The notes: a model not told the origin generated them from the letters alone. DNA of 64,000 nucleotides from Candidatus Zhuqueibacterota bacterium (GCA_013202295.1 JABMRT010000118.1:16109-80108); one strand, 5' to 3'; positions 422 to 21,507 are shown, counted from the first letter of the stretch. Translations and numbers: made by a program.

Positions 422-470
422 TTGCAATCCGGATCAGACAAACAGTTTGACCGCGATAGGAGGAAAAGAA

Positions 471-2498: not shown

Positions 2499-2522
2499 TT
2501 CTTTTAAGGCACGGATGAAATT

Positions 2523-3509
2523 TTGAAAAAAGGAAACGATAAAATCTTTCTGTCTTTTTCGATAGAACGAGATGCGATTCATCTTGTGGCTTCGAGCTCC
2601 AAACAGATTATTGGTTTGGATTCAAAAGAATTGGTTCAGCAATTTGATCATAACGGGATTCGCTCTGAAGAGATCTTGTATGAAAATTCGATAGATATTT
2701 TAAAGAAAATGCGTGAACCCTATGGTGACCGCGCCCAAAAGGCGGGGATTGTCATTGGCCAGGAGTTGGTGCTGGTTAAACGCGTGCCCGTGGCTTTGGG
2801 ATTGGATGACGAGCAGGTAAAGGACCAGCTTGATTGGGAAGCCAAGCAACTTTGCATCTCTTCGCCTGAAGAATTCAACATTGTCTCCAAGAGGATGACA
2901 CAAAGAGAGACAGGCGGCAATCAAGTATATTTAATCATACTGGTCCGAAAAAAAATCATTCAATTAATACACCGGCTTATCAAAAAGGCGGATCTAAAGC
3001 TGGTCGATGTTGAGATTGACTTGTTTGCGAATTTCCGCCTCTTTCAGGCGAACGAGAATCCCAAAGAAGGAGAAACATCTGTACTCATTCATTTACAAGA
3101 GGATACTCTCACTTTCACAGTGATCCGCGATAATGAGTATTGTCTATCTCAACGACTGGCTGTCAAGTCTGCAGGAGAGACTGAGGAAGAATTAAGCGAA
3201 AAGGTTGTTCCCTTGATTTTAAAAGAACTGAAACGCCTTGTTTTTGCACATCGTTTTGGAAATGATATTCAAGATCTCAACGGCGTTTATCTTTTATCAG
3301 AAACACCGCTTCATCTGTTTAAACAAGGGCTTGCTTCCAAGCTGCCTATTCCTGTTACACAGATTAATCCTTTTATGCAATTTGCTATCTCGGATAAATT
3401 AATTCATACAAGTAATTTTTCCGAATCACCTGGTAAGTTTGCTTCAGCTCTTGGGCAGACATATAAACATTATCCAGCATTGGTAAAAAAAGCCGCTGCT
3501 GGCAGATGA
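2523..3509 (+). CDS. PilM-like (actin-like ATPase fold) pilus assembly protein, putative; start codon uncertain (TTG at 2523 or GTG near 2587)
   Basis: The ~330 aa size fits PilM. 'SKQIIGLDSKELVQQ' resembles the PilM N-terminal 'vGiDiGsssiKvv.l' strand. The gene sits immediately upstream of an ORF whose N-terminus carries the PilN 'INL' motif. The assignment rests on context and weak motifs only. Confidence 0.4.
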   Translation: MKKGNDKIFLSFSIERDAIHLVASSSKQIIGLDSKELVQQFDHNGIRSEEILYENSIDILKKMREPYGDRAQKAGIVIGQELVLVKRVPVALGLDDEQVKDQLDWEAKQLCISSPEEFNIVSKRMTQRETGGNQVYLIILVRKKIIQLIHRLIKKADLKLVDVEIDLFANFRLFQANENPKEGETSVLIHLQEDTLTFTVIRDNEYCLSQRLAVKSAGETEEELSEKVVPLILKELKRLVFAHRFGNDIQDLNGVYLLSETPLHLFKQGLASKLPIPVTQINPFMQFAISDKLIHTSNFSESPGKFASALGQTYKHYPALVKKAAAGR

Positions 3510-3530
3510 CACACAGGGAGGATATAACCC

Positions 3531-4622: not shown

Positions 4623-4666
4623 GATAGGGTGTCGGAATCCTTCGCATTGATGATTGAAATAATATT

Positions 4667-5230
4667 GTGATACGTGTCATTGGGGGTTCCGCTCGCGGGA
4701 GAAGGTTGAAAGGTCCCAAAGGAACGGCCTTTCGTCCCACAACAGGCCGGGTGAAGGAATATATTTTTAATATACTTGGGGAGACGATTCAGGACGCGGT
4801 TGTTTTAGATTTATTCTCTGGTTCAGGCTCGCTGGGCATTGAGGCATTGAGCCGCGGTGCACGGCATGTCACATTTGTTGAGTTGGATGCCAGCCACACA
4901 CACATTTTAGAAGACAATCTCAACACGTGCAGATTCAGAGAACAAGGCCGGATTTACAGGGGGAATGTTTTCACACAAATTGAGCGCATGCATAATTCTT
5001 CAATGCAGTTTGATCTTGTATTGGCAGATCCCCCCTTTAAAGAAAAGTACCATCAGCACATTGTTGAGGCTCTGACAAGGTTCCCAATCTTGAAACATAA
5101 AGGATTGTGTCTTATCGAGCATGAAAAAAATGATCCGGCCGACGAAAGCAGAGAATTAGCGCTTGAGAAATCCAGAGCGTTTGGGCATGTGACCGTATCC
5201 ATGTATGAGCAAATAACCAATATTCTATAA
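4667..5230 (+). CDS. rsmD: 16S rRNA (guanine966-N2)-methyltransferase RsmD
   Basis: SAM-binding motif 'VLDLFSGSGSLGIEALSRGA' and substrate motif 'LVLADPPF'. ~185 aa. Conserved rsmD-coaD gene pair. Confidence 0.85.
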   Translation: MIRVIGGSARGRRLKGPKGTAFRPTTGRVKEYIFNILGETIQDAVVLDLFSGSGSLGIEALSRGARHVTFVELDASHTHILEDNLNTCRFREQGRIYRGNVFTQIERMHNSSMQFDLVLADPPFKEKYHQHIVEALTRFPILKHKGLCLIEHEKNDPADESRELALEKSRAFGHVTVSMYEQITNIL

Positions 5231-6861: not shown

Positions 6862-7986
6862 ATGGCAAGAATTAATTTCAGCGATAATGTTGAGGCCAGA
6901 GGGCGAAATTTGCACCTACAGACCAACACGCTGGATGAAAATAATCATATGGTTTCCACTCTTTTCGATGGCGGTCGAGTTTTGGCCAAAGAAGATAAAG
7001 TGTATCAAGAAGATCTTGCAGATGACGCACTTCAGAACGAAGTGATGATTTTTCATGCTGATCGGAAGGAATCCATTGAAAGACTGTATCTGATCTCAGC
7101 CAGAGTGAAAACCATGCGGCATGCACAGAGCATGCATATGCTCGGATGTCTTTTCCTGAAATGGCATCTGATTGATGAGGCGATTAGTGAATTTGAATAT
7201 GCCCTGAATCAGGATGATCAATATGGCGATGCCTATCTAAATCTGGGGCGTGCATATATTCTGAGAGGCGGCTTTCAAGAGGCCATTGAAATCCTTCAAA
7301 AGGGAAGAAATATCGCAACCAATTATCCAGATATACAAGCGGAATTGGGATATGCATATTTATTAAACCATCAGCATAAAGAAGCGATTGATATGCTCGA
7401 AGCTGCTCTTAAGATTAATGCCTCTTATGCGGATGTACACTATCTACTCGCACTTGTTTTCTTTTATCGGTTTTTACATGAAGAATCCGGCCAAGACGAT
7501 AATATTGAGCATTTTAAAGACAGAACAATCGAACATTTAAATCGGGCCGTATCACTTTCCAAACGATACAGAATTAAAGCGGTTGGCGAGGGCGTCTTAT
7601 TTATTAAAAGGGGAGAATTTGAGGCGGGCTATCGGAAGCTGCTTGACACCCAAGAGAAGATAGGGCCAGAATTGGATAAGACGTTTCACTATGAATTTTA
7701 TTTAAACTTTCTCTATGGTCAGGATGGGCGGAACCACAAATATCTGGATCAGTACCGCGCAACATTGGAGCAGCTTCTCAGGGAACATCCTGATTATCCG
7801 GATTTGCATAATTATCTGGGCGTGACGTCACTCATTCAGAGCAGGGAACACATCAATCGTGCGATTCATGAGTTCAGAACCGCCAATCAGCTGAATCCGG
7901 AGTATCAGGAAGCTGCGCGGAATCTGAAATTAACGGAAAATGACGGCAAGGGATTTCTCCTGCTACTCAGGGCAGTGCTACGATAA
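6862..7986 (+). CDS. TPR repeat-containing protein
   Basis: Several 34-aa TPR-like units (e.g. 'AISEFEYALNQDDQYGDAYLNLGRAYILRGGFQEAIEILQKG', 'AIHEFRTANQLNPEYQEAARNL'). Confidence 0.6.
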   Translation: MARINFSDNVEARGRNLHLQTNTLDENNHMVSTLFDGGRVLAKEDKVYQEDLADDALQNEVMIFHADRKESIERLYLISARVKTMRHAQSMHMLGCLFLKWHLIDEAISEFEYALNQDDQYGDAYLNLGRAYILRGGFQEAIEILQKGRNIATNYPDIQAELGYAYLLNHQHKEAIDMLEAALKINASYADVHYLLALVFFYRFLHEESGQDDNIEHFKDRTIEHLNRAVSLSKRYRIKAVGEGVLFIKRGEFEAGYRKLLDTQEKIGPELDKTFHYEFYLNFLYGQDGRNHKYLDQYRATLEQLLREHPDYPDLHNYLGVTSLIQSREHINRAIHEFRTANQLNPEYQEAARNLKLTENDGKGFLLLLRAVLR

Positions 7987-8159
7987 GGGTGACCGGAAAT
8001 TGGTCAACATCCATTTTATTATGGAATAAGGGAATTACTAGCAAGCTGTTTTCATTGGAATTAAGTCTTTTTAGAAATCAGTGCTATTCTTTGGTATGCA
8101 GTTTGCTTAAATTAGAAATACTTGATATTTAACAATCAATAAAATCAGGGACACTTCAA

Positions 8160-11100
8160 ATGAGACGGGTCCATAAAAAGAAGAATCAGATGATGCAGAA
8201 TAAAACAAATTTCAGTTTATTGATATTACTCGCGATCGCAAGTCTGCTCCCAAGCACCTCTATTGCGCAGCTCACAGGTGTATCAGTGACCATGGGTGAT
8301 TCGACAGTCAATGCGAGCAGCTGGCATAAGATTGAATTTACGCATACGGACTCTATTCCCAAAGATGGTAAAATTTTAATTGTTTACCCTACAGGTTTTG
8401 ATTTAACTGAAATCTATACTGTCCAATCTGATATGATGGATGGTGCCTGGACAACAATAGTGATCGGCGACACAGTTTTTATCAATCGTAATGGCAATGG
8501 ATCCCAAGAACTACCCGGACGACCTGAAAGATTATATTTGTTAAATGTGGGTAATCACACACAATCCGGCACCAGCTTCACAGTCGATGTGGAAACAAGG
8601 TTTTATAATGACGCAGTAATTGATCAAGGAACCTCAAACGGATTCAGCCTTAATCCCGGGGAAATGGATCGGTTTGCTTTTTCAGGCATTCCGGCCAACG
8701 TTGAAGCGGGAGATCAATTTCCAATAACGATCACTGCACAAGATGAGTATGGGAATGATGCTACAGGTTTTACCTCCGATGCAACTCTTTCAGATAAAAC
8801 AGGTACGTTAAGTATTTCTGGAGGTGGCACTACTACAAGCTATTTCACCGCAGGCGTTTGGAGTGGAAACATTCAAATACTTCAAACAAATCTAAGCAAT
8901 TCAATTACAGCTACCTCGGGGAGCAAGACCAGCACATCCGGCTCTTTCGTGGTCGATCCAACAACCTTGGATTACTTCACATTCGGTGCAATCTCAAGCC
9001 CACAAACTGCGGATACACCGTTTGGTGTTAGCATTACGGCCTATGACAACCTTGGCAATATCAAGACGGATTACACAGGTAATACTGATTTGACCGACCA
9101 AACAGGAAACTTATCAATCACGCTCAACGAATTTGACAACAATACGACCGCTGCATTTTCAGGCGGCATCTGGAGCGGCAATGTTCAAGTGACTCAGACG
9201 TCAACTGATAATTTTATTACGGCTTCCGGTCCTGCGAGTGGCAATTCCGGGCAGTTCAATATCAATCCTGCGTCAGCAAGCACATTTACTTTTTCCAATA
9301 TCGTTGATCAGGAGGTCGGTGAGCCTTTCCTGATTACAATCACAGCACGCGATCTTTATAATAATGTAGCAACCAGTTTTGGATTAACCGCTACATTATC
9401 CGATGTGACCGGCACACTTCAGATCAGGGCCAATGGCAGTGGAACCACAACAAATAGTTTCTCATCCGGTGTGTGGACCGGGAACGTTGATGTCAATCTG
9501 ATTCATACTGCCGATCAGATTTCTGCGGTCAGTGGTGCTGTGACTGGCAGCTCAACTCAATTTCGAGTGGATCCAACCAGTTCAGTGGATCACTTTGATG
9601 TCACAATTGCCTCCATAGGCACTCCGAAAACCGCAGGCGTTCCGTTTTCCGTAACCATAGAAGCAATTGATGAATTTGGGAATACCGCCGATTATTCCGG
9701 CAATGTCACACTCTTTGACGAAACAGGGACCAATTCACCACAACAGGTTGCAATCAGCAATGGAACTTGGACGGGGAATGTTACGATAGAGCAAGTGCGA
9801 TCTAACAACTCTTTGACGGTTGCTGGTGCGGGTGAGGGTGGGGTGTCCGGCAACTTTGATGTTGTGGCGAACACAGTAGCCTCCTTCGGAATTAATCCGA
9901 TCACCAGCCCCCAACGGGCCGGAAGTTTTTCCATAAACATGACTGCGTATGACGTGTATGATAACATTGCCACAAGCTTCAATCAAACGGTGACACTGGA
10001 AGTTCTCGCATCCGCGACTATTGCCATTACGCCAACGACAAGCGGCGCGTTCAGCAATGGTCAGAGAACCCAGACGGTGCAGATTACCCAGGCCGCGCAG
10101 GATCTTCAAATCCGTATTGTGGATGCAGGGAGCCATGAGGGCACTTCCAACCTGTTCAATGTGATTCATCATGCCACACTCGATGAGTTCGTGATTGGTC
10201 CCATCGCGACCCAGGCAGCAGGGCTTCCTTTTACCCTCTCTTTAACTGCGGTAGATCAATACGGAAACACTTATACCAGTTTTGACGGCACAGACAATTG
10301 GGTATATATCAGCCATTCCGGTTCTGGCAGTATCGTTCCGGTCCAAAGTCAAACTTTTGATCAAGGCAAGTGGGTCGGGAATATTACGATCGATGAGGTT
10401 CAGACGGGCGATGTAATTACTGTCACACGCTATAGCGGCTTAGAAAACGGGCAATCTAACGCATTTAACGTGACGCCAGGCGTGGTAAGTTATTTTGAAT
10501 TTGATCCAATACCCGATCCCATTGTAGCGGGCGATACTTTCCAGATCTGGGTGCGCGCCTATGATGCACAGGGCAATCTCGTTACCGGAGCGGAAGGATC
10601 CTTCGTGATCAATCTGATTGACGAAACCGGATCGATTCTTGACGATACGGGCACAATCAACATAAGCCAGGTTTCACTGATTGGTGGAGTGGGTACTGAA
10701 ACAATTCAGATCCGGGAAAGCATTTACAATAACACACTCACTGCATCCGGGCAAGGTAAAAGCGGTATATCCAATGAATTCGATGTGAATCCCGCCGCGG
10801 TGAATCATTTCAATATTGGTGTGATTGGCAGCCCGCAATTCTCTACTCAAAGTTTTGCGATGACCATCACAGCCAAGGATCAGTTTGAGAACACGGTCGA
10901 TTATTATACAGAGTCTGTGTACCTGTCCGATTCAACCGGAACAATCCAGCCCACACAAAGCGGTACTTTTATTAATGGTGTGCGTACTGTTTCCGTTCAG
11001 ATCACAGAAGCGAGAAACGATGTCCGCATTTGGGCGTATCTTGGATCCGGGGAAAAGGGCGAATCCAATCTGTTTAATGTGTTCCCCGGTCCATTGGATC

Positions 11101-14100
11101 ATTTCACATTTAATGAAATTCCGGATCAGATTATCCGACATCCATTCTCTATTACAATTACTGCTTTTGACGTGAATAATAATATCAAGACAAATTTCAA
11201 TGAATCCGTCACTCTTTCAGATGAAACCGGGACGATTACACCTACAGTGAGTCCCAATTTTGTGAATGGTGTGATGACAGGCGGTGTCACACTATATACC
11301 GATACGACGGATAATCGAATCACAGCCACCTATAATAGTGTGTCTAATTCTTCCGAGCTCTTTGACGTGGTGCTCGATCCGGGTATTCAGGTGCTTAATT
11401 TTAAAGCGCTTTGGAAAGACACAACCACACAGATCAGTTCCATAACAACGAATCAAGACAGCCTCTGGTATTTAACCTGCCATGTGCGAAACATGAGTGG
11501 ATCCAACACCCGAATGGATAGTCTGCAATTGTCCGTTACAGTAAACAATCAACAGCGGAATGACTTCACTTATACTCTTCCCACGCAGTTCTGGGGGAAC
11601 GGTACAGAGAACCTGGGCGGCGGCGCATTGGATTCTCTGCTCATTCCGATCACGCATACGGGCAGCAGATCCGGCCCGGCGATTTTTCAGGTGACCGCCT
11701 TTTTGAAAAAACTTGATACGGGCGCTACTTTGTCCAATGATGCAGTTACCAATTTGTTGGTGCAAACCGACGGAGTTCTCTACGTCAATGAGATGCGAAT
11801 GAAGAATCCGGTTGTATCGAAAGCTGAAGTCACAAGGGGGCAAGATCAAGATTGGTCCATCTCCGTAGTGGTCAAAAATCAGGGACAAAGCCACATTCTG
11901 GTGGATTCCTCTACCAATGCCACATTTCTTAATTTCAGTATCGGGACGCCTGCCACCTGGATCATAGCAAGACCGCCCTTATGGAGCGGTGGCGACTGGA
12001 TTCTTGAAGGCGGAGAGACAGATACACTTAAATACATCATTGATGAAACGACGGATTTGAACTCCGGCTCCTGTTCTGTAGATGCTTATATTGAAGGCAC
12101 GGAAATCAATACTGGCAGGACACTGACAGAAAACACACTTGACGGGGGATCGGGTACCGTGCTCATTGAACAACCGGCCGCGCTGAGAATTCAATCCGTA
12201 ACGAACCTTGCACCCAATGCACCCTATGTGAACCGGAGTCAAGCTTTTACAATTCGAGTACAAGTTACTAATCCGGGCGGGGACGCGTCGCTCTCTTCCT
12301 CTTTAGCGATAAATCAACTCCATTCCTCTTTCCCTGCAACGAGTAATGTGGGATTACTTTCAGGAAGCCAATCCCAAACTGTTGATATTGCCGGCACAGC
12401 TGCTGCAGTAGAGGGTCTGGATGACACCTTTACAATTCGAGCCAATGGCACAGCAGAAAATACAAACGCGTCCATTAGCGATCAAAATCCAGTGGATGAT
12501 ACAGCGCAGGCGATTACTCAGATTCCAGCAACACTCGAAATTATTTCCGTGATTCCTTCCACGACCCAATTGCTGGGAGGACAAACAGATCCATGGAAAT
12601 TGAGGGTTGTTTTACGAAACTCCGGTCAGGCTATCATTGATCTGGATCCGCCCAAGGCAGACAGTTTGAGTTTCTGGGTGGAAGGACTCAGACAGGAAGA
12701 TTATAATGTCATTGCTCCAACCGGATTGTCGAAAAGCGGCAATCTTTCATTGTCAGGCGGAATTACTGATACGCTGACTTTTACAGTAAACACAACAGGC
12801 ACCTATGGCGGCACAGTAGGCATTCTTGCTTCAATTAGCGGTAAAGACAGAAATGATTTAAACATTGTCCGGGATACTGATAACACAAGCGTAACCGTGG
12901 AAACAGAAGAAGCTTTCCGCATCATCCAGACACAGATTGATGCGATTAATACGACAGATGCGAAGAATGGATATGTGAATACCGGCCAGGATTTCAATGT
13001 GCTGGTCATTGTAGAAAATGCCTTGGGCAATACAATTCGAAACATCGATATCCGACTAAACTCGGACGGCGATTCACAGATCGATGATACTACTGCTTTT
13101 ATCAGCTCATTGCCTCCGTCTAAGCGGGATTCGGTCTGGTTTGATGTTCAAGCATCCGGCATTGAGAATCTCAACGGTGAACTGTTTACATCATCTATTG
13201 CTTCCGCAAAGCGCGACAATCAAGTCGATGATGCTCCAATCGGAGCCGCACATGATTCCACAGCAACGATGATTATCCAAACCCGTGCCGAGTTGTCTCT
13301 TGAGCTTTCTTTGGATCCGGCTTCGGGTGTTGTGTCCGTCAACCAACCCTTCACAGTGCAGGCTCGATTGATAAAAACCGGGTCGAGCCAATTGAAAAAT
13401 GATGGCCGCGTGAAGGTTGTACCTCCTAGCGGGTATTTGCTCTTCTCGGATTCCGATACCGCATCTATTACACCGGCACAGCCCGTATCGTGGATCATTG
13501 AAGCACCCAGTGACACCTCGACCGATGATGAAATTCGTGTCAAACTGGAAAGCTATCCCGATGATAAGAATACAGATAACAATGCCTATGTGTCCAATAA
13601 TTCAACTTATATATCCATTTCTACAATACGAAGCCGGATGGATGCTGCGGTCACAATTTCGGATCCAGCCGGAGCAGCGGATGGCACGATTTCAAGCGGG
13701 CAGAATTTTACAGTAAAGGTAGCAGCCGGATTGTCTAATGTGACCGGGGCAAGGGCCAAGATCGATTTGCCCAGTGGCTATACCACACGAAACAATGTCA
13801 CACAAGTTCTCAGTCCGGATTCGGCCACATGGCTGGTGACAGCGCCAGCACTATCTCAATCTGAAAATGAGATTGAGGTAATCACATGGGGATATGATGA
13901 TCTCCAGCCCAATATAGAAATAGGAAGAGATACAACGCGACTTCCAATTCAAACTGTATTACGCGCCGATCTATCTCTTTCATTAGAAATCACCAGTCCT
14001 CCGGAAGCGGCCCAATATGGCACCGTCTCTCTGGGCCAGGAATTTACAGTACAATCACGCGTTGTAAATAACGGTGTGGCAACGACAGAAGGTGACATGC

Positions 14101-15146
14101 AAGTCACTCTACTCTCCTTACCGGATGGTTTTACAACCCATGACCCTCTAACTCAAACTTTGATATCCGGCGATGCGGACTGGACCATAAAAGCACCGAA
14201 CCAGATCAATCAGGCCATCGCAAGCATCGAGGCCCGAATTACTCAAATCCCGCAGGATGAAAACACGAATCAACAAGCTCATATTTCAAAAGATTACCAA
14301 TCTGTTTCACTGACTTTAGAAGGGGCTACTCTGGCAGTATCGGCACTGCCTCTACCCGAAGGAGCAAAGCAGGAATTGGTGCCGGGTCAGGAGGATGTGG
14401 TCTTCATGCGACTCCAGCTAAAGAATGACGGGCAGGAGGGATCATACGATATACAGGTTGAGCGTATTCATTTCTATTTAGAAGACAGAAACGGGAATCC
14501 GGTTTCTCCCGCATCTGCACTTTCACGGCTTGAAGTGGTTGATGATCAAAACGCGACCACATATGGCGGAATCACACAGATCCCATCCGCCAATCCCCTA
14601 ACCATTGAACTCAATGGATTGATTGTGACTGTCGAGCAGAAAGCTCAGGATGAAAATCCGACAATACTTATTCGGGGAAATATCTCCGGCTCAGAAACGA
14701 TTCCCTACTTTCTATTAAATCTACCTGGAACTGATGCCATTGAAGCGATTGAGTCCAACACCGGACGAATTGTTTCGGTGACCGATCCTACTGGTGAAGA
14801 CTGGGAGGACATGCGGTCCATGCCGATGAAGATTTTTGATCTGGTTCGCGAGCATCAACTTTGGAACAGCCCCAATCCGTTTGGAGAGTCAGGCCGGGAG
14901 ATCACATCAATCTATTTTTATATGCCAGAACAACAATCGGTTGAGTTCCGCATCTTCACATTGATGGGGAAGTTGGTAAAAACAATTCAAATCGATGAGG
15001 TGGATGTTATTGCAAACCAGATTAATCTCTGGACATGGGATGGTACCAATGACAAAGGCATTAGGGTTCTGAATGGTGTATACCATTTATTTATGCAAAT
15101 GAGTGACGGACAGATTTTAAAACATAAAATCGCTTATGTGAAATGA
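8160..15146 (+). CDS. Giant (2328 aa) cell-surface repeat adhesin with T9SS C-terminal sorting domain; ~95-aa Ig-like tandem repeats N-terminally and CARDB/DUF11-like repeats C-terminally
   Basis: Signal peptide (LLILLAIASLLPSTSIAQ). About 10 repeats of the pattern 'F.F..I.SPQ.AG.PF..TITA.D.YGN....F.....L.D.TGT......F..G.W.GNV.I........ITA.....G.S..F.V.P'. Later repeats look like 'A.LRIQSV.NL......V...Q.FTIRV.V.N.G'. The C-terminal ~90 aa 'NPFGE...ITSIYFYMPEQQSVEFRIFTLMGKLVKTIQID...GVYHLFMQ..DGQILKHKIAYVK' matches the T9SS CTD. Confidence 0.8.
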   Translation: MRRVHKKKNQMMQNKTNFSLLILLAIASLLPSTSIAQLTGVSVTMGDSTVNASSWHKIEFTHTDSIPKDGKILIVYPTGFDLTEIYTVQSDMMDGAWTTIVIGDTVFINRNGNGSQELPGRPERLYLLNVGNHTQSGTSFTVDVETRFYNDAVIDQGTSNGFSLNPGEMDRFAFSGIPANVEAGDQFPITITAQDEYGNDATGFTSDATLSDKTGTLSISGGGTTTSYFTAGVWSGNIQILQTNLSNSITATSGSKTSTSGSFVVDPTTLDYFTFGAISSPQTADTPFGVSITAYDNLGNIKTDYTGNTDLTDQTGNLSITLNEFDNNTTAAFSGGIWSGNVQVTQTSTDNFITASGPASGNSGQFNINPASASTFTFSNIVDQEVGEPFLITITARDLYNNVATSFGLTATLSDVTGTLQIRANGSGTTTNSFSSGVWTGNVDVNLIHTADQISAVSGAVTGSSTQFRVDPTSSVDHFDVTIASIGTPKTAGVPFSVTIEAIDEFGNTADYSGNVTLFDETGTNSPQQVAISNGTWTGNVTIEQVRSNNSLTVAGAGEGGVSGNFDVVANTVASFGINPITSPQRAGSFSINMTAYDVYDNIATSFNQTVTLEVLASATIAITPTTSGAFSNGQRTQTVQITQAAQDLQIRIVDAGSHEGTSNLFNVIHHATLDEFVIGPIATQAAGLPFTLSLTAVDQYGNTYTSFDGTDNWVYISHSGSGSIVPVQSQTFDQGKWVGNITIDEVQTGDVITVTRYSGLENGQSNAFNVTPGVVSYFEFDPIPDPIVAGDTFQIWVRAYDAQGNLVTGAEGSFVINLIDETGSILDDTGTINISQVSLIGGVGTETIQIRESIYNNTLTASGQGKSGISNEFDVNPAAVNHFNIGVIGSPQFSTQSFAMTITAKDQFENTVDYYTESVYLSDSTGTIQPTQSGTFINGVRTVSVQITEARNDVRIWAYLGSGEKGESNLFNVFPGPLDHFTFNEIPDQIIRHPFSITITAFDVNNNIKTNFNESVTLSDETGTITPTVSPNFVNGVMTGGVTLYTDTTDNRITATYNSVSNSSELFDVVLDPGIQVLNFKALWKDTTTQISSITTNQDSLWYLTCHVRNMSGSNTRMDSLQLSVTVNNQQRNDFTYTLPTQFWGNGTENLGGGALDSLLIPITHTGSRSGPAIFQVTAFLKKLDTGATLSNDAVTNLLVQTDGVLYVNEMRMKNPVVSKAEVTRGQDQDWSISVVVKNQGQSHILVDSSTNATFLNFSIGTPATWIIARPPLWSGGDWILEGGETDTLKYIIDETTDLNSGSCSVDAYIEGTEINTGRTLTENTLDGGSGTVLIEQPAALRIQSVTNLAPNAPYVNRSQAFTIRVQVTNPGGDASLSSSLAINQLHSSFPATSNVGLLSGSQSQTVDIAGTAAAVEGLDDTFTIRANGTAENTNASISDQNPVDDTAQAITQIPATLEIISVIPSTTQLLGGQTDPWKLRVVLRNSGQAIIDLDPPKADSLSFWVEGLRQEDYNVIAPTGLSKSGNLSLSGGITDTLTFTVNTTGTYGGTVGILASISGKDRNDLNIVRDTDNTSVTVETEEAFRIIQTQIDAINTTDAKNGYVNTGQDFNVLVIVENALGNTIRNIDIRLNSDGDSQIDDTTAFISSLPPSKRDSVWFDVQASGIENLNGELFTSSIASAKRDNQVDDAPIGAAHDSTATMIIQTRAELSLELSLDPASGVVSVNQPFTVQARLIKTGSSQLKNDGRVKVVPPSGYLLFSDSDTASITPAQPVSWIIEAPSDTSTDDEIRVKLESYPDDKNTDNNAYVSNNSTYISISTIRSRMDAAVTISDPAGAADGTISSGQNFTVKVAAGLSNVTGARAKIDLPSGYTTRNNVTQVLSPDSATWLVTAPALSQSENEIEVITWGYDDLQPNIEIGRDTTRLPIQTVLRADLSLSLEITSPPEAAQYGTVSLGQEFTVQSRVVNNGVATTEGDMQVTLLSLPDGFTTHDPLTQTLISGDADWTIKAPNQINQAIASIEARITQIPQDENTNQQAHISKDYQSVSLTLEGATLAVSALPLPEGAKQELVPGQEDVVFMRLQLKNDGQEGSYDIQVERIHFYLEDRNGNPVSPASALSRLEVVDDQNATTYGGITQIPSANPLTIELNGLIVTVEQKAQDENPTILIRGNISGSETIPYFLLNLPGTDAIEAIESNTGRIVSVTDPTGEDWEDMRSMPMKIFDLVREHQLWNSPNPFGESGREITSIYFYMPEQQSVEFRIFTLMGKLVKTIQIDEVDVIANQINLWTWDGTNDKGIRVLNGVYHLFMQMSDGQILKHKIAYVK
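8655..11355 (+). repeat. In-frame tandem coding repeats (~285 bp / ~95 aa, ~10 copies, diverged) within the giant adhesin gene
   Basis: The motifs 'SPQ.AG.PF..TI.A.D', 'L.D.TGT', 'G.W.GNV.I' and 'F.V.P' recur with ~95-aa periodicity. Confidence 0.6.
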
Positions 15147-15223
15147 CAGAAATGGAAATGAGATATAATTCCCCGAAGAGAATTCTGGATGGGTATCCAG
15201 CGTTTGATTCGGGAATCATTTAA

Positions 15224-17161
15224 ATGGATTTGATTCAGGTTATGCCAATGAAAAAGATTACAATGGTTCTATTCGCAGGGATAGTCCTCACCTCGTTTAT
15301 CTCGCTGCAGGCACAGGATGGTGAAGCCGGTATAGAGAGCCTCTTTTCGATCGGTTTTGGAGCCAGAGGCATGGCTCTTGGAAATGCTTCTGTGGCTTTC
15401 CCCGAAGACCCCACGGCGTTCGCGTGGAATCCTGCGGGTATGGTCAAGGTTGAGCGCAAAGAATTCCTTTTCAGCCATACCACACTCTTTGAGGATGTTC
15501 AATATAATTTTATCGGATATGTACATCCTACCTTAAATGCCGGTACATTCGGATTCGGCATTTCACGGGCGGGTACCGGAGGAATCCGGGAATTTGATAA
15601 TATAAATGGAGTTTCCATCGAAGGCGATGAATTCGGATACTGGTGGGGCAAACTTTCCATTGCTTACGCAGTCCATCTATTTAGCGGGATCTCTTTCGGC
15701 GCGAACTTTGAGGCGAACCGGCAAGTGCTTTTGGATTATTCGACCAATGGGTTTGGACTCGATGCCGGATTACATTATGCGCCCTCAAACACCAGCATGC
15801 TTCACGGCTTTAATTTCGGGTATGTTGCGGTAAATGCGTACAGTCCCAGATTAAAGTTAGGGACCGAATCAGAAGCCATCCCTCCTATACAGAAACTGGG
15901 TATTGCGCGTACGATCAATTTGCGTGACGGACTGGACCGATGGCTCTTTCTCTTTGATTATGAATGGGCGCAAAATAAAAAATCAAAATATCATTTTGGT
16001 ACCGAGTACAGCCTTGATCGAAGTGTTTTCTTTCGAACGGGTTTTGATAATGGTGAGATCACATTTGGAGGCGGGCTTCGCATACACATGTTCCAGTTAG
16101 ATTACGCGAATAGCCGTATTGGAGATGCCGAATATTTTCCTCGAAGTCATCGCTTTTCTCTCATTTTTCATATTGGTCAGACTTTGGCTGAAAAGCTTGA
16201 AGCCATTCAAGATCAACGAGAGCAGGAGATTCGTGACCGGTTTCAGGAAAGGCTCAGCGAAGAACGCAAAGTGCGTATTGAAGAAAGCCTAAAAACGGGA
16301 CAGGAATACTTTGATAAAGGAGATTACTTTAACGCACGACTCGAATTTAGCAGGGTTTTGCGTGAAGATAGAAATAATGTGGCTGCCAAACGCAGGCTCG
16401 ACATGACGACCGAGAAGGAACAGGAATTCCAGAAACAGCGTGAGGATTCTTTGTTGAGTGCGGCCAGAGAACGCGACCAGCAGCAGCGTGATCTCGATTT
16501 CGTGAATCAGCGCTTCCAGGATGGAAATGAGGCCATGCAGCGGGGCGAGTTTCAGGCTGCAATCAAAAAATGGGAAGAAGCACTTGAAGTAGATCCAGAT
16601 CATCCCACCATCCGTTCGTACATTAGCCAAGCCCGTAATCAATTGGAAAGTGAAATCAATCGTGCGATTGCGAGTTCGCGCGCATACATGCGTCAAGAGA
16701 ATTTGACTGAAGCGAGACGCCTTCTTGAGCGTGCTAAAACACAGGCTGAGGGCAATCCGGAGCTGACTCGAAAGGTTACCGGCGAAATGAGGAATTTTGA
16801 TCGCATGGTTGACTTCATCTCGAATTATCAGGCGGGATTTAAACGATATAACGAGGGTCAATTTGCTGAGGCCGTTCCCTATTTTGAGAAAGCACTTGAA
16901 ACTCAGCCGGAAAACGAGCGGGTGCGCCAGCTTTATCAAAACGCACGGGCACGATCCAATACAGAAGAAAGCAATCAGCCTCCAGAAGTCAAGAGGGATG
17001 TTAGCGATAAGATTAAAGAAGGGATCGGCTTTTATAGAGATGGCCGATATGAAGAAGCATTGAGAGTTTGGGAGGAGGCGCTGGAACTGGATCCACATAA
17101 CGTTAGACTGTTGGAAGCTATCGACGGCGCCAGAGAAAAACTTGAAACGTTTCAACAATAA
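15224..17161 (+). CDS. Outer-membrane beta-barrel (FadL/PorV/PorP-SprF-like N-terminal motif) fused to a C-terminal coiled-coil/TPR domain; candidate T9SS-associated partner of the upstream adhesin
   Basis: Signal peptide, then 'GFGARGMALGNASVAFPEDPTAFAWNPAGM' (the AR.GM.G...A..PD......NPA pattern of PorV/FadL-type barrels). Alternating amphipathic strands run to ~aa 300, ending in 'FSLIFHIGQ'. The C-terminal ~340 aa are helical with TPR-like units ('WEEALEVDPDHPTIRSYISQAR', 'FEKALETQPENERVRQLYQNAR', 'WEEALELDPHNVRLLEAIDGAR'). Its position immediately downstream of a T9SS cargo gene mirrors sprB-sprF-type pairs. Confidence 0.5.
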   Translation: MDLIQVMPMKKITMVLFAGIVLTSFISLQAQDGEAGIESLFSIGFGARGMALGNASVAFPEDPTAFAWNPAGMVKVERKEFLFSHTTLFEDVQYNFIGYVHPTLNAGTFGFGISRAGTGGIREFDNINGVSIEGDEFGYWWGKLSIAYAVHLFSGISFGANFEANRQVLLDYSTNGFGLDAGLHYAPSNTSMLHGFNFGYVAVNAYSPRLKLGTESEAIPPIQKLGIARTINLRDGLDRWLFLFDYEWAQNKKSKYHFGTEYSLDRSVFFRTGFDNGEITFGGGLRIHMFQLDYANSRIGDAEYFPRSHRFSLIFHIGQTLAEKLEAIQDQREQEIRDRFQERLSEERKVRIEESLKTGQEYFDKGDYFNARLEFSRVLREDRNNVAAKRRLDMTTEKEQEFQKQREDSLLSAARERDQQQRDLDFVNQRFQDGNEAMQRGEFQAAIKKWEEALEVDPDHPTIRSYISQARNQLESEINRAIASSRAYMRQENLTEARRLLERAKTQAEGNPELTRKVTGEMRNFDRMVDFISNYQAGFKRYNEGQFAEAVPYFEKALETQPENERVRQLYQNARARSNTEESNQPPEVKRDVSDKIKEGIGFYRDGRYEEALRVWEEALELDPHNVRLLEAIDGAREKLETFQQ

Positions 17162-17184: not shown

Positions 17185-20100
17185 ATGTTTAAGAAGGTGA
17201 TCAAGGAGCAATGGGAATTTCCTGCAGAAATTGATTATCTCGGCGATATGCGGGATACGGTGATGGAGTTCGGCCGACAATACGGTGTCTCCGAGCAAGT
17301 GATAAATGCGTTCAAACTTGCAATTGATGAAGCCGGTACAAATATCATCCGGCACGCATATCGAGATTGGGATGGCAAAATCACTCTTCGAGTGATCATT
17401 CGCGATAAATCAGTCACAATATCCTTAATCGATCAGGGCCATCATTTTGATCTGAGAAAAGTGCAGGATCCGGATCTGCAGCGATACGTGGATATCGGAA
17501 AAAAGGGTGGCCTGGGGATCTTTATTATTCGCCGTGTGATCGATAAAATTGATTATAGAAAAACGTCAGAGGGCAATGAGCTCCGCCTCACAAAAAACCG
17601 ACGGGGCAATAAAGCTGGCAGTTTGATGAGTGCCGATTTGCCCTTTACCATGAAAACCCGATTCTCTCTGATTGCATCAGCGATTTTAACGCTATTTGTA
17701 TTGGCAGCGATTGTCTGGAATTATTTTGTGCAGGAAGATAAAATCCTTAATGCGAATCTGGCATCCGGACAGAATATGACTCGCTCTCTTGTGCATCAAT
17801 GTGCCGATCCTCTTGCGAAAGGATACCTTTGGGAACTCAGTGCGATTGTTTCTGAAAACCACAGAGAATGGTATCCCAAGATCAGCGAAATCATGGTGCT
17901 TGATACAGCGAATATTGTACAGGGTCTTGTGAATCTGGATTCTTTGATGAGTCAATATGTATTCCCTGTGAACGCCAGGCAAATCCGTAAGGGCATTTAT
18001 ATTATACAAACCTGGTCTGGCAAGACAGTTTATGATATTATTGAACCGGCTGTGACCCAGGTGCAGGGTCGGGAGATTCAGCTCGGATCGATTCATCTTA
18101 TGCTTGACAAAGCGGTAATTGATTCAGAAGTGGTTGATGCGAGGAAGCGCATTATTTTTAACGGGGCAATCATTCTTATTCTTGGCTGCGGCGGTATTTT
18201 CGGTTTGGTATATCTGACTTTGAGCCCCTTTAAAAAGCTTTCTAAATGGGTTCGGGATCTTGGACATGGTGAAGTGCATGATGAAATGGAATTCAATAGA
18301 TCGGATGAGATCGGCGAGATCGCCCAGGCGTTCAATGAAATCACCGAGAAATTCCGCAAATCTCAAGAAAATGTAGCTGAGCAGGAACGGCTGCAAAAAG
18401 AGATGCAAGTCGCCCAGGAAATACAACAAACTCTTCTCCCGGATTCTTTTCCCGATGTCGAGGGGTATGAATTGGCCTCCTATTATGAAGCGGCCAAAGA
18501 GGTGGGCGGCGATTATTTTGATTTTTTTAAGGTTGATCGTGACACACTCGGCATCGCTGTCGCCGATGTGTCGGGTAAAGGTGTTCCCGGATCACTCGTA
18601 ATGACCATGATTCGCACTGCACTGCGCACGGAAGCGCGCGGCAATAAAAACGCTGCGGATGTTCTTTCCAAAGTCAATGATTTTGTGATCAATGATATGA
18701 AACGGGGTATGTTTGTTACTGTTTTCTATATAATCCTTGATTCAAAACGTCGTATTATCAATTATGCCAGTGCCGGACACAATCCCATGATTCTATACAG
18801 GGGACAATCTGAAAAGAGCTATTATTTAAATCCCAGAGGATTTCCCATCGGGATTAATCTTCCGGACAAGGCGCTATTTCGTAAATCCATTGAATCTGAT
18901 ACTTTGCAGCTTAGACCGGATGATGTGCTGATTGCGTATACGGACGGTATCACGGAGGCAATGGATAAGAGCCGGAATCGATTTGGTGATGAGCGATTTC
19001 TCTCTGTATTAAGGCGGAGTGGCAACCTACAAGCCGAGCCGCTGGTAAAACGTATTCAGGAAGAAATTCAGCGTTTTACAGGCGGTTACGCGCAGAGTGA
19101 TGATATTACACTGGTTGCGATTCGTGAAAAACTAGCTGCAGAAGATGTGCTTTTTAATCATCGAAACGAGTTGTTTCGCATGGTAAAAAAAGAAGGCATG
19201 AGCGTTAAAGAAGCCTGTGAAAAAGCAGGAGTTTCGACCTCTACGTATTATAAATATAATAAACTTTATAAGAAAGAGGGTAAAGCCGGATTAAAGGAAC
19301 GTGTTTCCAAGACTGAAATTGAAGAGAAGCATATTGCCATTGAGGACAAGGCGAAAATCTATGATGTGATTAAGCAAACTCCCGAATATGGTCCGAAGCG
19401 CATTCGTGAAGAGTTGAACACAGAAAAGTACGGCTTTCTGCAGGTTGATGAAAACCGCATTTATGATGAGTTGGTCCGCAGTCGGTTAAACACCAAGGAT
19501 CTGCGTATGGCTTTTGTGGAGCGGGGTGGTCGGGGCAAACGGATGAAACCACCAGGAACACCATTTCTCACATTGGATGGCAAGGTAATTATTGAACCGA
19601 CCGTTCACCGCATACCCGTCCCGCCACCGAGACAGACAATTGTACAGGCGCCGGTTGAAGTTGAAAAAGCGGCCGAAGCACCGGATACAGTTTCAGAAAA
19701 CAAAGAATGGAACACGCTTCAGGTTGTTGATATGACCGAACAAAACGACGGTTTTGGTGAACACGAGGGCGTCTCCATAGCCGAGGAAGTCGAGATGGGT
19801 GCTGAAGAAATTGAGGAACAGATTCAGCATGATCTGGTCTCACATGGTGCTGATCAGCAGGCTGAGGTCCAACATGAAGAGGAACGGATCTCTCAAGATC
19901 TATCAGAAATTCCTGAAAGCAAAGAAGAAAACTCCGAAGAGATTTTTTCAGATCTAGATGAGATAGAATCACTCCAAAATCAGGATGCGAAGGATATAGA
20001 AGAACCGGATTTCGATGAATTTATATCTTCAGATGACGGTCTGGCTCATGCCCTTTTGACGGGATCCGACGAGAATTTTGATTTCATGGAAAAAGAATCC

Positions 20101-20781
20101 ATTGCCGAAAAACGGTCTGAAGAATTTATGAATATCGATGAGATTCTTGAGACAGACAAACCCCTATTGGTGAATGAGCATATTGATCATCGGGTTGAAG
20201 AAAATATATCTTCCTCTGCGGTGGATGATCTCATGAGTGAGGTTACGGGTGAATTGGATTTGATCTCTGCGGGTACAGTGCCGGTTGAGGAAGAGGCAGG
20301 TTTTGTTGAAATGATGGAAGGACTTGGTTTTGATCGCAGGGATGTGTTCCAGGGGGGCAAACGATCTGAGGCGGGCAAGAAAGCTGCGGAATATTATCAG
20401 CGTATGCGCTTTCATGAATCAGGTCAATGGTTTTACCGTGAGGGTCTCTACGCACGGGCTATTGAGGAATTCAGGAAAGCAATTGAATGCGATCCGAAAT
20501 TCGGAGATGCATATCACAGCATTGGTGACGCACATTTTCGGCTTGGCCAGCTTGAAAAGGCCAAAAATTCTTATATTAAGGCCAAAGAGTTGAATCCTGA
20601 AAACATTGATGTGCTTGAAAATTTGGGTGTAATTTACGCCAATCAGGGCGATTACAGACGGTCGGTTTGGCAATGGGGTGAAGTCATCAAACGGGATCCC
20701 TCCAGACTGGATATTATTGAACGCATCAAACGCATGCAGCGTGTCATTCGGCAGCGTGCTGTGTATCATAAAAGAAGTTGA
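17185..20781 (+). CDS. Multidomain membrane partner-switching regulator fusing RsbW-like anti-sigma Ser kinase, TM sensor, HAMP, PP2C/SpoIIE phosphatase, IS3-like transposase HTH modules, an acidic disordered linker and TPR repeats
   Basis: aa 1-145: HATPase_c_2 ('AIDEAGTNIIRHAY', 'GGLGIFIIRRVIDKIDY'). TM1 ~aa 160-180, a ~150-aa extracytoplasmic segment, TM2 ~aa 330-350. HAMP ('LSPFKKLSKWVRDLGHGEV...IGEIAQAFNEITEKF'). PP2C/SpoIIE ('GGDYFDFF', 'IAVADVSGKGVPGSLVMTMIRTALR', 'AYTDGITEA', 'QSDDITLVAI'). aa ~660-790: 'MVKKEGMSVKEACEKAGVSTSTYYKYNKLYKKEGKAGL' (IS3 OrfA-like HTH) and 'IYDVIKQTPEYGPKRIREELNTEKYGFLQVDENRIYDELVRSRL' (IS3 OrfB HTH_21-like). aa ~830-1010 are D/E-rich and low-complexity. 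The C-terminus has TPRs ('AIEEFRKAIECDPKFGDAYHSIGDAHFRLGQLEKAKNSYIKAKELNPEN'). Confidence 0.8.
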   Translation: MFKKVIKEQWEFPAEIDYLGDMRDTVMEFGRQYGVSEQVINAFKLAIDEAGTNIIRHAYRDWDGKITLRVIIRDKSVTISLIDQGHHFDLRKVQDPDLQRYVDIGKKGGLGIFIIRRVIDKIDYRKTSEGNELRLTKNRRGNKAGSLMSADLPFTMKTRFSLIASAILTLFVLAAIVWNYFVQEDKILNANLASGQNMTRSLVHQCADPLAKGYLWELSAIVSENHREWYPKISEIMVLDTANIVQGLVNLDSLMSQYVFPVNARQIRKGIYIIQTWSGKTVYDIIEPAVTQVQGREIQLGSIHLMLDKAVIDSEVVDARKRIIFNGAIILILGCGGIFGLVYLTLSPFKKLSKWVRDLGHGEVHDEMEFNRSDEIGEIAQAFNEITEKFRKSQENVAEQERLQKEMQVAQEIQQTLLPDSFPDVEGYELASYYEAAKEVGGDYFDFFKVDRDTLGIAVADVSGKGVPGSLVMTMIRTALRTEARGNKNAADVLSKVNDFVINDMKRGMFVTVFYIILDSKRRIINYASAGHNPMILYRGQSEKSYYLNPRGFPIGINLPDKALFRKSIESDTLQLRPDDVLIAYTDGITEAMDKSRNRFGDERFLSVLRRSGNLQAEPLVKRIQEEIQRFTGGYAQSDDITLVAIREKLAAEDVLFNHRNELFRMVKKEGMSVKEACEKAGVSTSTYYKYNKLYKKEGKAGLKERVSKTEIEEKHIAIEDKAKIYDVIKQTPEYGPKRIREELNTEKYGFLQVDENRIYDELVRSRLNTKDLRMAFVERGGRGKRMKPPGTPFLTLDGKVIIEPTVHRIPVPPPRQTIVQAPVEVEKAAEAPDTVSENKEWNTLQVVDMTEQNDGFGEHEGVSIAEEVEMGAEEIEEQIQHDLVSHGADQQAEVQHEEERISQDLSEIPESKEENSEEIFSDLDEIESLQNQDAKDIEEPDFDEFISSDDGLAHALLTGSDENFDFMEKESIAEKRSEEFMNIDEILETDKPLLVNEHIDHRVEENISSSAVDDLMSEVTGELDLISAGTVPVEEEAGFVEMMEGLGFDRRDVFQGGKRSEAGKKAAEYYQRMRFHESGQWFYREGLYARAIEEFRKAIECDPKFGDAYHSIGDAHFRLGQLEKAKNSYIKAKELNPENIDVLENLGVIYANQGDYRRSVWQWGEVIKRDPSRLDIIERIKRMQRVIRQRAVYHKRS

Positions 20782-20806
20782 CAATCTTTCAAATTTCCAT
20801 TAACTT
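20778..20806 (+). promoter_or_regulatory. Possible sigma70-like promoter for the STAS gene (-35 TTGACA 20778-20783, 17-nt spacer, -10 TAACTT 20801-20806)
   Basis: Hexamers read directly from the sequence. The -35 overlaps the upstream stop codon. Consensus usage in this lineage is unknown. Confidence 0.25.
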
Positions 20807-20853
20807 GACAAGTAACTCATTTAATTTGAATGGATTTCCGATAGGAGAATAAC

Positions 20854-21507
20854 ATGGAAGGCATACAGGTGTCCGTGGAACGTGCTGGATATCAGGGTGA
20901 CATTTCGATCATTAAGGTCGGTGGCTATATTGATACAACCACTTCTTCGGAGCTTGAACGTGCTTTGGAGGGATTGCTAAAATCCGGCATTTACAGAGTC
21001 ATTATTGATCTGCAGAATGTGGATTACATCTCCAGTGCAGGTTGGGGTATATTTATTAGTGAGATAAAAGGCATTCGTGAGAGGGATGGAGATTTAAAAC
21101 TCGCCAACATGATTCCGGATGTGTATGAAGTGTTTGAACTTCTCGAGTTTCACTATATCCTGAAAGCGTATGATTCTATTGAGGCAGCAATCCAGGATTT
21201 CAATCAGGAAGAGAATCCCATGATTGAAGAAGAAACGGTTGTTCAGGAAGATGCTGAACCGGAGGTTCCCAGCACCCAAAAAGAAGAACCATTGTCTTCC
21301 GAACCGATTCCTGACAGTCTTGAAGACATGATACGCGAAATTGCTTTGGAGAATCCGGAATTGGGTCATGGTCAAATCGCTAAAGCACTTAATACAGATA
21401 AGTATGGCTTTACGCGTGTGGGACAACTCACTGTTTGGAAAATATTACGGAAGATGCATCTCGGGTCAAAAAAAGCCAGGGAGGAGATTGCCAGAAATCG
21501 AAACTAA
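20854..21507 (+). CDS. STAS-domain anti-sigma-factor antagonist (RsbV/SpoIIAA-like) with C-terminal acidic linker and HTH-like extension homologous to a segment of the upstream regulator
   Basis: STAS core 'ISIIKVGGYIDTTTSSELERALEGLLKSGIYRVIIDLQNVDYISSAGWGIFISEI'; the position of the phosphorylatable Ser is consistent with 'DYISSAG'. The C-terminus 'MIREIALENPELGHGQIAKALNTDKYGFTRVGQLTVWKILRKMHL' parallels 'IKQTPEYGPKRIREELNTEKYGFLQVDENRIYDELVRSRL' in the 1198-aa protein. Confidence 0.8.
   Translation: MEGIQVSVERAGYQGDISIIKVGGYIDTTTSSELERALEGLLKSGIYRVIIDLQNVDYISSAGWGIFISEIKGIRERDGDLKLANMIPDVYEVFELLEFHYILKAYDSIEAAIQDFNQEENPMIEEETVVQEDAEPEVPSTQKEEPLSSEPIPDSLEDMIREIALENPELGHGQIAKALNTDKYGFTRVGQLTVWKILRKMHLGSKKAREEIARNRN

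Follow-up and report, generated by a model that had tools for sequence, protein, structure and literature searches.

Transposase-type helix-turn-helix units in both partners of a fused kinase/phosphatase–STAS switch of KSB1/Zhuqueibacterota and Calditrichota

Introduction

Few signaling devices are as widespread in bacteria as partner-switching modules, and most of those without a sigma factor as target have no known output. HsbR/HsbA of Pseudomonas aeruginosa and Rv1364c of Mycobacterium tuberculosis exemplify fused forms, in which an RsbW-type kinase and a PP2C phosphatase are joined and act on a STAS protein. SypE of Vibrio fischeri, with the order kinase-REC-PP2C, is a fused partner-switcher that acts on the STAS protein SypA with a non-sigma output (PMC10120452). 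Here, we analyzed a switch of this kind in a 64-kb window, by which we mean the whole stretch of 64,000 nucleotides (nt) from Candidatus Zhuqueibacterota bacterium (GCA_013202295.1 JABMRT010000118.1:16109-80108). The window encodes a membrane regulator of 1198 amino acids (aa) (17185..20781, + strand; 2004 homologs) and, downstream of it, a STAS protein of 217 aa (20854..21507, +; 2241 homologs), both taken from the open reading frame (ORF) list. Each of them carries helix-turn-helix (HTH) units of transposase type.

Exaptation of a transposase DNA-binding domain by a cellular regulator has its textbook case in the paired domain. In bacteria, the recruitment of mobile-element HTH proteins as host regulators, such as Ner/SfsB and Xre-type antitoxins, is a known theme (PMC8987985). 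A first-pass annotation of the present DNA, made from the sequence alone, had proposed that IS3-type transposase HTH modules were exapted into both the regulator and its STAS partner, where they might mediate mutual recognition or tether the switch to DNA. We found no paper describing a bipartite transposase-type HTH in such regulators or an HTH on the STAS partner. Automatic annotation holds pieces of the picture: some homologs have precomputed HTH Pfam matches, and some Joint Genome Institute (JGI) names start with 'RsbU.../TPR.../tran...'.

Results

Both switch partners carry a transposase-type HTH

The regulator contains a module of two HTH units (aa 659-775, nt 19159-19509), which sits between its PP2C phosphatase domain and an acidic linker followed by a tetratricopeptide repeat (TPR) tail. 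The first unit, HTH1 (aa 660-712; 19162..19320, +), is of the transposase HTH_28/HTH_Tnp_1 type and passes the gathering cutoffs of both Pfam families, at 26.5 bits for HTH_28 (cutoff 25) and 24.8 bits for HTH_Tnp_1 (cutoff 24.1). It retains the transposase recognition helix 'STYYKY.K.Y'. The second unit, HTH2 (aa 716-775; 19330..19509, +), is of the HTH_32/HTH_21 type. The STAS protein ends in a C-terminal HTH of the same type (aa 153-217; 21310..21504, +), recognized from Pfam, structure prediction, a match to IS3 OrfB and a residue profile, and its recognition helix, 'VWKILRK', and its tail are both basic. The peptides on which the first-pass annotation had built its proposal fall inside these units, at regulator aa 666-706 (nt 19180-19302) and 725-768 (nt 19357-19488) and at STAS protein aa 160-203 (nt 21331-21462).

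Matches to the HTH2-type families were weaker in the window proteins themselves. The STAS tail reached E = 3e-4 and 21.4 bits against HTH_21, below the gathering cutoff of 28.1, and scores against HTH_32 in the window proteins were 16.8-21.1 bits, below its cutoff of 33.7. Across the families, 28/31 diverse regulators matched HTH_28, 28/31 HTH_32 (best E 3e-9) and 22/31 HTH_Tnp_1, with HTH_28 and HTH_Tnp_1 counted at E ≤ 0.01; LZ_Tnp_IS481 was matched by 14 and HTH_21 by 8 of the 31. Among 74 STAS-family members, 41 matched HTH_32 and 35 matched HTH_21 (best E 1e-6), and some homologs carry a precomputed PF13276 match. Together with the NCBIfam matches and transposase alignments described below, these profiles bear out the proposal that both partners possess a transposase-type HTH.

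HTH2 and the STAS tail are also significantly alike. BLASTP aligned regulator aa 725-774 with STAS protein aa 160-209 at 34% identity over 50 ungapped residues (E = 1e-7), and the Smith-Waterman score of 82 compares with 23.5 ± 4.5 for shuffled sequences, none of 5000 of which scored as high. Family profile against family profile, hhalign gave a probability of 98.8% and E = 1e-16 over 55 columns, and it detected no similarity between the STAS tail and HTH1. A hidden Markov model (HMM) of each family retrieved the other, and nothing else, from the six-frame ORFs of the window. The STAS tail is thus a homolog of the second HTH only. Profile matches and a similarity beyond composition were both found, the reverse of the outcome that the first-pass annotation had named beforehand as fatal to its idea.

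The regulator module corresponds to the N-terminal region of IS481/IS3-type transposases

We compared the module with complete transposases. The NCBIfam transpos_IS481 model aligned through positions 1-109 of its 284 with regulator aa 659-770 (E = 4e-16, 59 bits; cutoff 224), and the NCBIfam IS3 model gave E = 5e-6 and 26 bits. A tblastn search of the module against plasmids returned annotated IS3 and IS481 transposases. The module gave collinear alignments with the N-termini of three proteins: a Pseudomonas IS481 transposase (aa 14-99, E = 3e-11), an IS3 OrfB of Acetobacter (aa 10-106, E = 9e-13) and P0381 (E = 1e-15), a 332-aa IS481-like transposase containing HTH_28, HTH_32, rve and rve_3. 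All three alignments stop just short of the 'W..D' that begins the DDE core. For its part, the STAS tail aligned with the second HTH of the same Acetobacter OrfB (39% over 51 aa) and with the second HTH of P0381, in which its 'ELxxE+YGxxxV' loop and 'VW+.LR+..LG' helix recur. An HMM of the STAS tail scored 48 bits on P0381, 17-44 bits (mean 31) on regulator HTH2 copies and ~6 bits on two other transposases. Very probably, then, the regulator has exapted the complete N-terminal two-HTH region of an IS481/IS3-type DDE transposase, ending where the catalytic core would start.

IS481 was formerly classed within IS3 (PMC10045372), and similarity to both is therefore expected; the two are sister families. 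By the NCBIfam scores and the Pfam counts, the module is closer to the single-ORF IS481 N-terminus than to an IS3 OrfA/OrfB pair. The earlier reading of the segments as IS3 OrfA and OrfB was thus right about the transposase HTH type, and 'IS3-type' holds loosely, but single-ORF IS481 is the better fit. The IS481 arrangement also explains the lack of a frameshift site.

The first-pass annotation had further noted an 'E..G...I...LNT.KYGF..V' register in both partners and had suggested that the module was duplicated into each. The register is indeed common to them, but it is not private to them: P0381 carries ELAGERYGALRVSRMSVWRLLRRRGLG, an LNT.KYGF-type register of the same kind. We also considered the long loop between the second and third helices, with its 'LNT.KYG', as a derived character proving duplication between the partners, and rejected it, as both IS3 OrfB (FTDEQGYFVSEASVYRLRK) and P0381 share the loop. 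The homology holds, but the shared register, being present in P0381, is no proof of duplication; it goes back to the ancestor of an IS481 subgroup. The data fit equally well with a single capture and a later duplication or with two separate captures of related elements.

The module is not an insertion sequence and is conserved across two phyla

No rve/DDE domain was found in the regulator or the STAS protein with Pfam and NCBIfam, and none, nor any transposase domain, among the larger window ORFs scanned. Inverted repeats were limited to short imperfect pairs (14-22 nt, 71-88% complementary), none of them bracketing either HTH segment, and an HMM search of the six-frame ORFs revealed no further copy of the module in the window. 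The regulator is one continuous ORF. As had been read from the sequence at first, a DDE core, convincing inverted repeats on the flanks and a frameshift are all lacking.

Word-indexed homolog searches with the isolated module gave nothing, and we used a full-length query and exhaustive HMMER searches instead. The module was present, at the same position, in 120/120 retrieved regulator homologs of the 2004. Distant homologs (41-55% identity), with KSB1 and Calditrichaeota names, keep it, with HTH1 there falling below Pfam detection. A scan of one genome per species found the module in 177 genomes, named KSB1/Zhuqueibacterota or Calditrichota/Caldithrix, along with metagenome-assembled genomes bearing other labels, and its position was identical in 80 fetched loci from different species. 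Mean column conservation was 0.80 for HTH2, 0.80 for the kinase, 0.83 for PP2C, 0.60 for HTH1, 0.64 for TPR and 0.17 for the acidic linker. We conclude with high confidence that the acquisition is old, predating the split of KSB1 and Calditrichota, and that the module has been inherited vertically; with equally high confidence, purifying selection on it is as strong as on the catalytic domains. Phylum-wide conservation and fixed synteny (see below) identify the segments as exapted, as had been proposed, and as neither an active nor a decaying insertion sequence.

Predicted structures of the HTH units

The AlphaFold2 (AF2) model of regulator aa 650-805 contains two three-helix sub-domains, with a predicted local distance difference test (pLDDT) score of 79.8 overall and ~90 for the three helices of HTH1. 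The STAS tail was modeled with helices at 154-166, 172-179, 191-200 and 206-216 (pLDDT 71-85), a pattern identical to that of the second sub-domain; these predictions fit the assignment to transposase-type HTH domains. In the PDB, Foldseek placed the module closest, though weakly, to Pax paired domains and to the DNA-binding N-terminal domains of TnsB transposase. Searched as a whole, the STAS model returned STAS-domain matches only and none for its tail.

The regulator and STAS protein resemble a working phosphorylation switch

Pfam and NCBIfam define the order of the regulator as RsbW-type Ser kinase, transmembrane segment, periplasmic sensor, transmembrane segment, HAMP, PP2C, HTH1, HTH2, PGTP motif, acidic disordered region and TPR. 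The kinase is an HATPase_c_2 domain of the RsbW/SpoIIAB-like type (aa 12-137; 17218..17595, +; Pfam E = 1e-26), which in the residues of its N, G1 and G2 boxes shows 95-99% conservation across 121 sequences. A Kyte-Doolittle scan located two hydrophobic transmembrane segments (aa ~158-184 and ~321-349; 17656..18231, +), and the ~135-aa extracytoplasmic region between them matches sCache_3_2 in the relatives P0287, P0289 and P0298. HAMP (aa 343-388; 18211..18348, +; Pfam E = 1e-7) precedes the PP2C/SpoIIE phosphatase (aa 452-647; 18538..19125, +; Pfam E = 6e-50), in which the metal-binding Asp residues 443, 461, 587, 639 and 640 are 100% conserved. Behind the module follow a basic tail with the near-invariant motif 'KPPGTPxLTLDG' (aa 776-800; 19510..19584, +), delimited by conservation and charge, the poorly conserved and probably disordered acidic linker (aa 801-1060; 19585..20364, +), with a net charge of about -56, and C-terminal TPR repeats (aa ~1075-1175; 20407..20709, +) matched by Pfam TPR_11, TPR_2 and related families.

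The STAS protein is 100% identical to a recorded protein from 'candidate division KSB1 bacterium', and the best 120 of its 2241 homologs are 210-230 aa long, bar one 162-aa fragment. Its anti-sigma-factor-antagonist-type STAS domain (aa 1-116; 20854..21201, +; Pfam E = 2e-17) bears Ser60/Ser61 in 'DYISSAGWG'; the domain is extremely conserved, and both serines are invariant in 74 sequences. Foldseek matched it to SpoIIAA (1th8_B, E = 9e-9, TM 0.86) and also to RsbV (6m36). An acidic linker (aa 117-152; 21202..21309, +), disordered by its pLDDT of <50 at residues 121-151 and with a net charge of -11 (family mean -9.3), leads to the C-terminal HTH. On account of the invariant catalytic motifs and Ser60, and of a STAS fold matching SpoIIAA/RsbV, the pair gives the appearance of a functional phosphorylation switch akin to SypE/SypA. 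No sigma-factor gene was found in the conserved cluster or among the window ORFs scanned, although a target could be encoded elsewhere.

The two genes travel together. In 70 of the 74 fetched regulator loci with sequence at that place (80 fetched in all), the STAS gene lies directly downstream, and the C-terminal HTH is encoded in 68/68 loci with a complete STAS coding sequence; one of these 68 is split by a frameshift. Two KSB1 genomes (L047/L050 and L063/L037) each hold two paralogous regulator loci, one with the STAS-HTH gene and one without. The STAS gene also has its own sigma70-like promoter (20778..20806, +), with a -35 box TTGACA at 20778-20783 overlapping the regulator stop codon, a spacer of 17 nt and a -10 box TAACTT at 20801-20806. 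Most of 70 orthologous loci have kept TTGACA-N17-TAnAAT/TATATT at this place, with a GGAG ribosome-binding site behind it.

Regulator variants place the module last or next to STAS domains

Out of 1.84 billion representatives searched exhaustively with HMMER, only 348 clusters matched the module at E ≤ 0.001, and the regulators among them take three forms. Form A, the type seen in the window, has 'KPPGTPxLTLDG', the acidic linker and TPR. Form B, of ~800 aa, ends a few residues past HTH2, which argues that the module acts as an output domain. In form C, made up of nine 50%-identity clusters (P0291, P0295, P0297, P0298, P0304, P0306, P0314, P0331 and P0367), HTH2 is followed directly in cis by one to three STAS domains that lack an HTH of their own, and every sequence of sufficient length has three. 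Form C argues that STAS and the module need proximity, which the trans form could reach through the STAS-borne HTH. In P0356, a STAS domain is accompanied by two tail-type HTH copies.

Residues of 'KPPGTPxLTLDG' (aa 788-799; 19546-19581, +), which directly follows the HTH module, are 94-99% conserved. The motif tracks TPR, with 26 clusters having both and one TPR only, and is absent from forms B and C; it may be a TPR ligand. The idea that it is a vestige of the first DDE strand was rejected for want of evidence, as the motif goes with the TPR domain instead.

Outside the regulators, most scanned relatives of the module are tandem (HTH_28-HTH_32)x2 proteins, several of them fused to GT2 glycosyltransferases, and at least one is a genuine transposase. 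P0336, P0340, P0344, P0352, P0371 and P0316 belong to this tandem-HTH/GT2 group, none with rve, and one relative of 634 aa matched the module in eight separate stretches.

A proposed mechanism and its competitors

Although homologous, HTH2 and the STAS tail differ in charge at aligned, ungapped positions. Position 30 is K in 82% of STAS tails and E in 75% of regulator HTH2 units; position 49 is K/R in 94% as opposed to D/E in 87%; position 50 is I/L/M as opposed to E in 95%; position 52 is R in 89% as opposed to V in 75%; and position 60 is K in 88% as opposed to E/Q/D in 87%. By family mean, HTH1 carries +3.6 and the tail after HTH2 +4.3, and the core of HTH2 is net neutral. The exposed faces of helices 2 and 3 are thus oppositely charged, basic in the STAS tail as in a genuine transposase and acidic in regulator HTH2.

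From this, we tentatively propose a mechanism that we think possible but would not rate as likely: the STAS-borne HTH would be a basic effector or tether, regulator HTH2 an acidic docking or decoy site, and phosphorylation would decide between capture and release. The Cache-like periplasmic domain and HAMP would sense a signal, and the fused RsbW-type kinase and PP2C would set the phosphorylation of STAS Ser60. The basic HTH of the STAS protein would be the effector end, probably binding nucleic acid, and the acidic HTH2 would keep the STAS-HTH protein at the membrane complex, so that it is sequestered or released according to the state of Ser60. HTH1, with its transposase recognition helix, and the basic tail may anchor the complex to DNA. 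What we observed directly are the homology, the order of domains, their conservation, the co-occurrence of the partners and the variant architectures. DNA binding, docking of one HTH on the other and the direction of the switch are what we infer; the cis-fused STAS variants, the variants ending in the module and the charge reversal are hints of a tethering or docking that feeds a DNA-binding output. Identity and mechanism taken together, we rate this explanation as slightly better than an even bet.

A number of results weigh against it. The Foldseek matches to transposase and paired domains were weak (E 0.03-1, none ≤0.001), and a sequence profile search of the PDB found no solved relative, only spurious acetyltransferase matches. 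In a mirror-tree analysis of 54 locus pairs, the STAS tail tracked HTH1 (r 0.71, partial 0.57) above HTH2 (r 0.50, partial 0.33), leaving co-evolution of HTH2 with the STAS tail unsupported, though the result is confounded by lineage-specific rate shifts. Operator-like conserved repeats were not found upstream of the operon or of the STAS gene, where only sigma54-type and sigma70-type promoters were seen. Fusions to membrane GT2 glycosyltransferases occur among close relatives of the module, which suggests that the module may have a non-DNA ligand. Four of the 74 loci have no adjacent STAS gene, two of the four being second copies where the genome does have the gene at its other locus. Finally, canonical partner-switchers recognize STAS by the surfaces of PP2C and kinase and need no extra docking domain (PMC11418112). 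The mutual recognition or DNA tether that the first-pass annotation had envisaged is thus hinted at by the cis-fused STAS domains and the reversed charges, but the mirror-tree does not single out the HTH2/STAS-tail pair.

The strongest competitor holds that both HTH units are independent, sequence-specific DNA binders without mutual contact: the regulator would be a membrane one-component transcription factor in the style of ToxR/CadC, and the STAS-HTH protein a phosphorylation-controlled binder at the same or related sites. The homology of the module to transposase DNA-binding regions speaks for it, as do the top fold matches, which are to TnsB and paired domains bound to DNA, but near the operon we saw no conserved repeat resembling an operator. 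HTH1 has a canonical, basic helix, and the tails after HTH2 and of the STAS protein are basic, whereas regulator HTH2 has a net-neutral core and a recognition helix in which positions 49 and 50 are conserved as D/E. Similarly, the C-terminal place of the module in some variants would suit a DNA-binding output, yet a polytopic membrane protein with a linker of charge -53 beside the module would be an awkward DNA binder. The loss of the STAS-borne HTH in the cis-fused variants is also left unexplained, and we consider independent binding rather unlikely.

Alternatively, the HTH units might bind no nucleic acid and serve purely as protein-protein adaptors, which would concentrate the STAS substrate at the kinase/phosphatase or recruit a third protein, such as the TPR tail or the neighboring TPR/surface-protein machinery. 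Such a role would accommodate the cis-fused STAS variants, the charges reversed between paralogous helices and the co-occurrence of the PGTP motif with TPR, as well as the presence of module relatives in membrane glycosyltransferases and long HTH arrays, where a role on DNA is not obvious. Three points make it distinctly unlikely: HTH1 and the STAS tail retain the basic and aromatic residues of transposases ('TYY+W/Y' and 'VW+.LR+'), the co-evolution analysis gave nothing particular to the HTH2/STAS-tail pair, and known partner-switching pairs operate without adaptors (PMC11418112). That the segments are functionless debris of IS481/IS3 insertions, or similar by chance or composition, is extremely improbable: the STAS tail and HTH2 of the window do fall below the HTH_21 and HTH_32 gathering cutoffs, but this reading is refuted by the conservation data, namely the fixed position in 120 homologs and 177 species genomes and an HTH2 as conserved as the catalytic domains, and it also faces the shuffling and hhalign results and the lack of inverted repeats, rve or other copies in the window.

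The conserved gene cluster and other features of the window

Synteny around the switch is fixed: a 374-aa TPR protein, a giant surface protein, a ~645-aa TPR-containing protein, the regulator and the STAS-HTH protein follow one another in the window (upstream genes at 6862-17161, +) and in the loci L001, L002 and L004-L006. The giant protein spans 2100-2700 aa across the clusters and has a FlgD_ig-like C-terminal domain of the secretion-sorting type, and the ~645-aa neighbor gives a weak N-terminal match to UPF0164. In the closer clade, aconitase and isocitrate dehydrogenase come after the STAS gene.

A sigma54-type -24/-12 element, TGGTATGCAGTTTGC, lies at 8092-8106 (+), ~55 nt upstream of the 2328-aa surface-protein ORF (8160..15146), and is the sole match to TGGYAYN5TTGC in the window. 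The same sigma54-type element precedes the orthologous giant gene at 1084-1098 in L004, 1052-1066 in L005 and 1613-1627 in L006. The window ORFs scanned included no enhancer-binding AAA+ protein. In the larger picture drawn in the Discussion, which we regard as doubtful, this neighboring sigma54-driven operon could be the target of the STAS-HTH device.

Elsewhere in the window, an upstream cluster (447-5230, +) with a PilM_2-like protein (2523..3509) among ORFs lacking a Pfam match may be a type IV pilus-like set. Sorting domains of the Por_Secre_tail or FlgD_ig type occur at the C-termini of several secreted glycoside hydrolases or unknown proteins at 52464-59456 (+), which suggests that the organism has a type IX-like route of secretion.

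Discussion

We have described a candidate output or tethering domain that can be read from sequence in a partner-switching pair and that at least 177 species from two little-studied phyla have kept. In addition, it provides a clean and old bacterial example of a transposase DNA-binding head retained while the catalytic core was discarded, with genuine IS481-like relatives still identifiable. Three natural architectures, with STAS in trans and bearing an HTH, STAS in cis, or the module last, tell which parts need proximity. Caldithrix is cultivable, which makes the idea testable.

If the STAS-borne HTH binds DNA, it would offer a direct route from STAS serine phosphorylation to transcription with no sigma factor. 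Going further, one may picture a phylum-wide, sigma-factor-independent device, in which STAS phosphorylation directly controls the protein's own transposase-derived DNA-binding domain and the sensor holds the STAS protein by way of a charge-complementary, DNA-mimicking paralog. We regard this larger picture as doubtful; if true, STAS switches would be seen to have a new kind of output logic, and paired-domain exaptation would have a counterpart in bacteria.

Fused kinase-phosphatase switchers and the recruitment of mobile-element HTHs were known already; to our knowledge, transposase-type HTH units in both partners of a switch have not been described so far. As in SypE/SypA, HsbR/HsbA and Rv1364c, a kinase and an opposing PP2C share one polypeptide here, the partner is a small STAS protein with a phospho-serine, and no sigma factor lies alongside. 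Unlike SypE and HsbR, the regulator has no REC domain and takes its input from a transmembrane Cache-like sensor and HAMP. Relative to SypE/SypA and HsbR/HsbA, the regulator adds the two-HTH module, the acidic linker and the TPR tail, and the STAS partner adds an HTH of its own.

With the N-terminal region of IS481/IS3 transposases, the module shares the order and spacing of two HTH sub-domains, collinear up to the rve core, and helix motifs recur in both partners ('TYYRW' in HTH1, 'VW+LLR+..LG' in the STAS tail). It differs from IS481/IS3 elements in lacking rve/DDE and terminal inverted repeats and in being a single, fixed chromosomal copy inherited vertically over two phyla; the units are embedded in signaling proteins, and the recognition helix of regulator HTH2 has turned acidic. 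The Pax paired domain and the N-terminal domains of TnsB/MuA, bipartite HTH DNA-binding domains that come from or serve transposases, likewise consist of two three-helix sub-domains joined by a linker, but the matches are weak, with no detectable sequence relationship, and the host protein here is a bacterial membrane kinase/phosphatase and not a soluble transcription factor. Ner/SfsB and the Xre-type regulators share the theme of a restricted, vertically inherited host version of a mobile-element HTH. Those proteins stand alone, whereas here a bipartite domain sits inside a partner-switching enzyme and its paralogous half is borne by the substrate.

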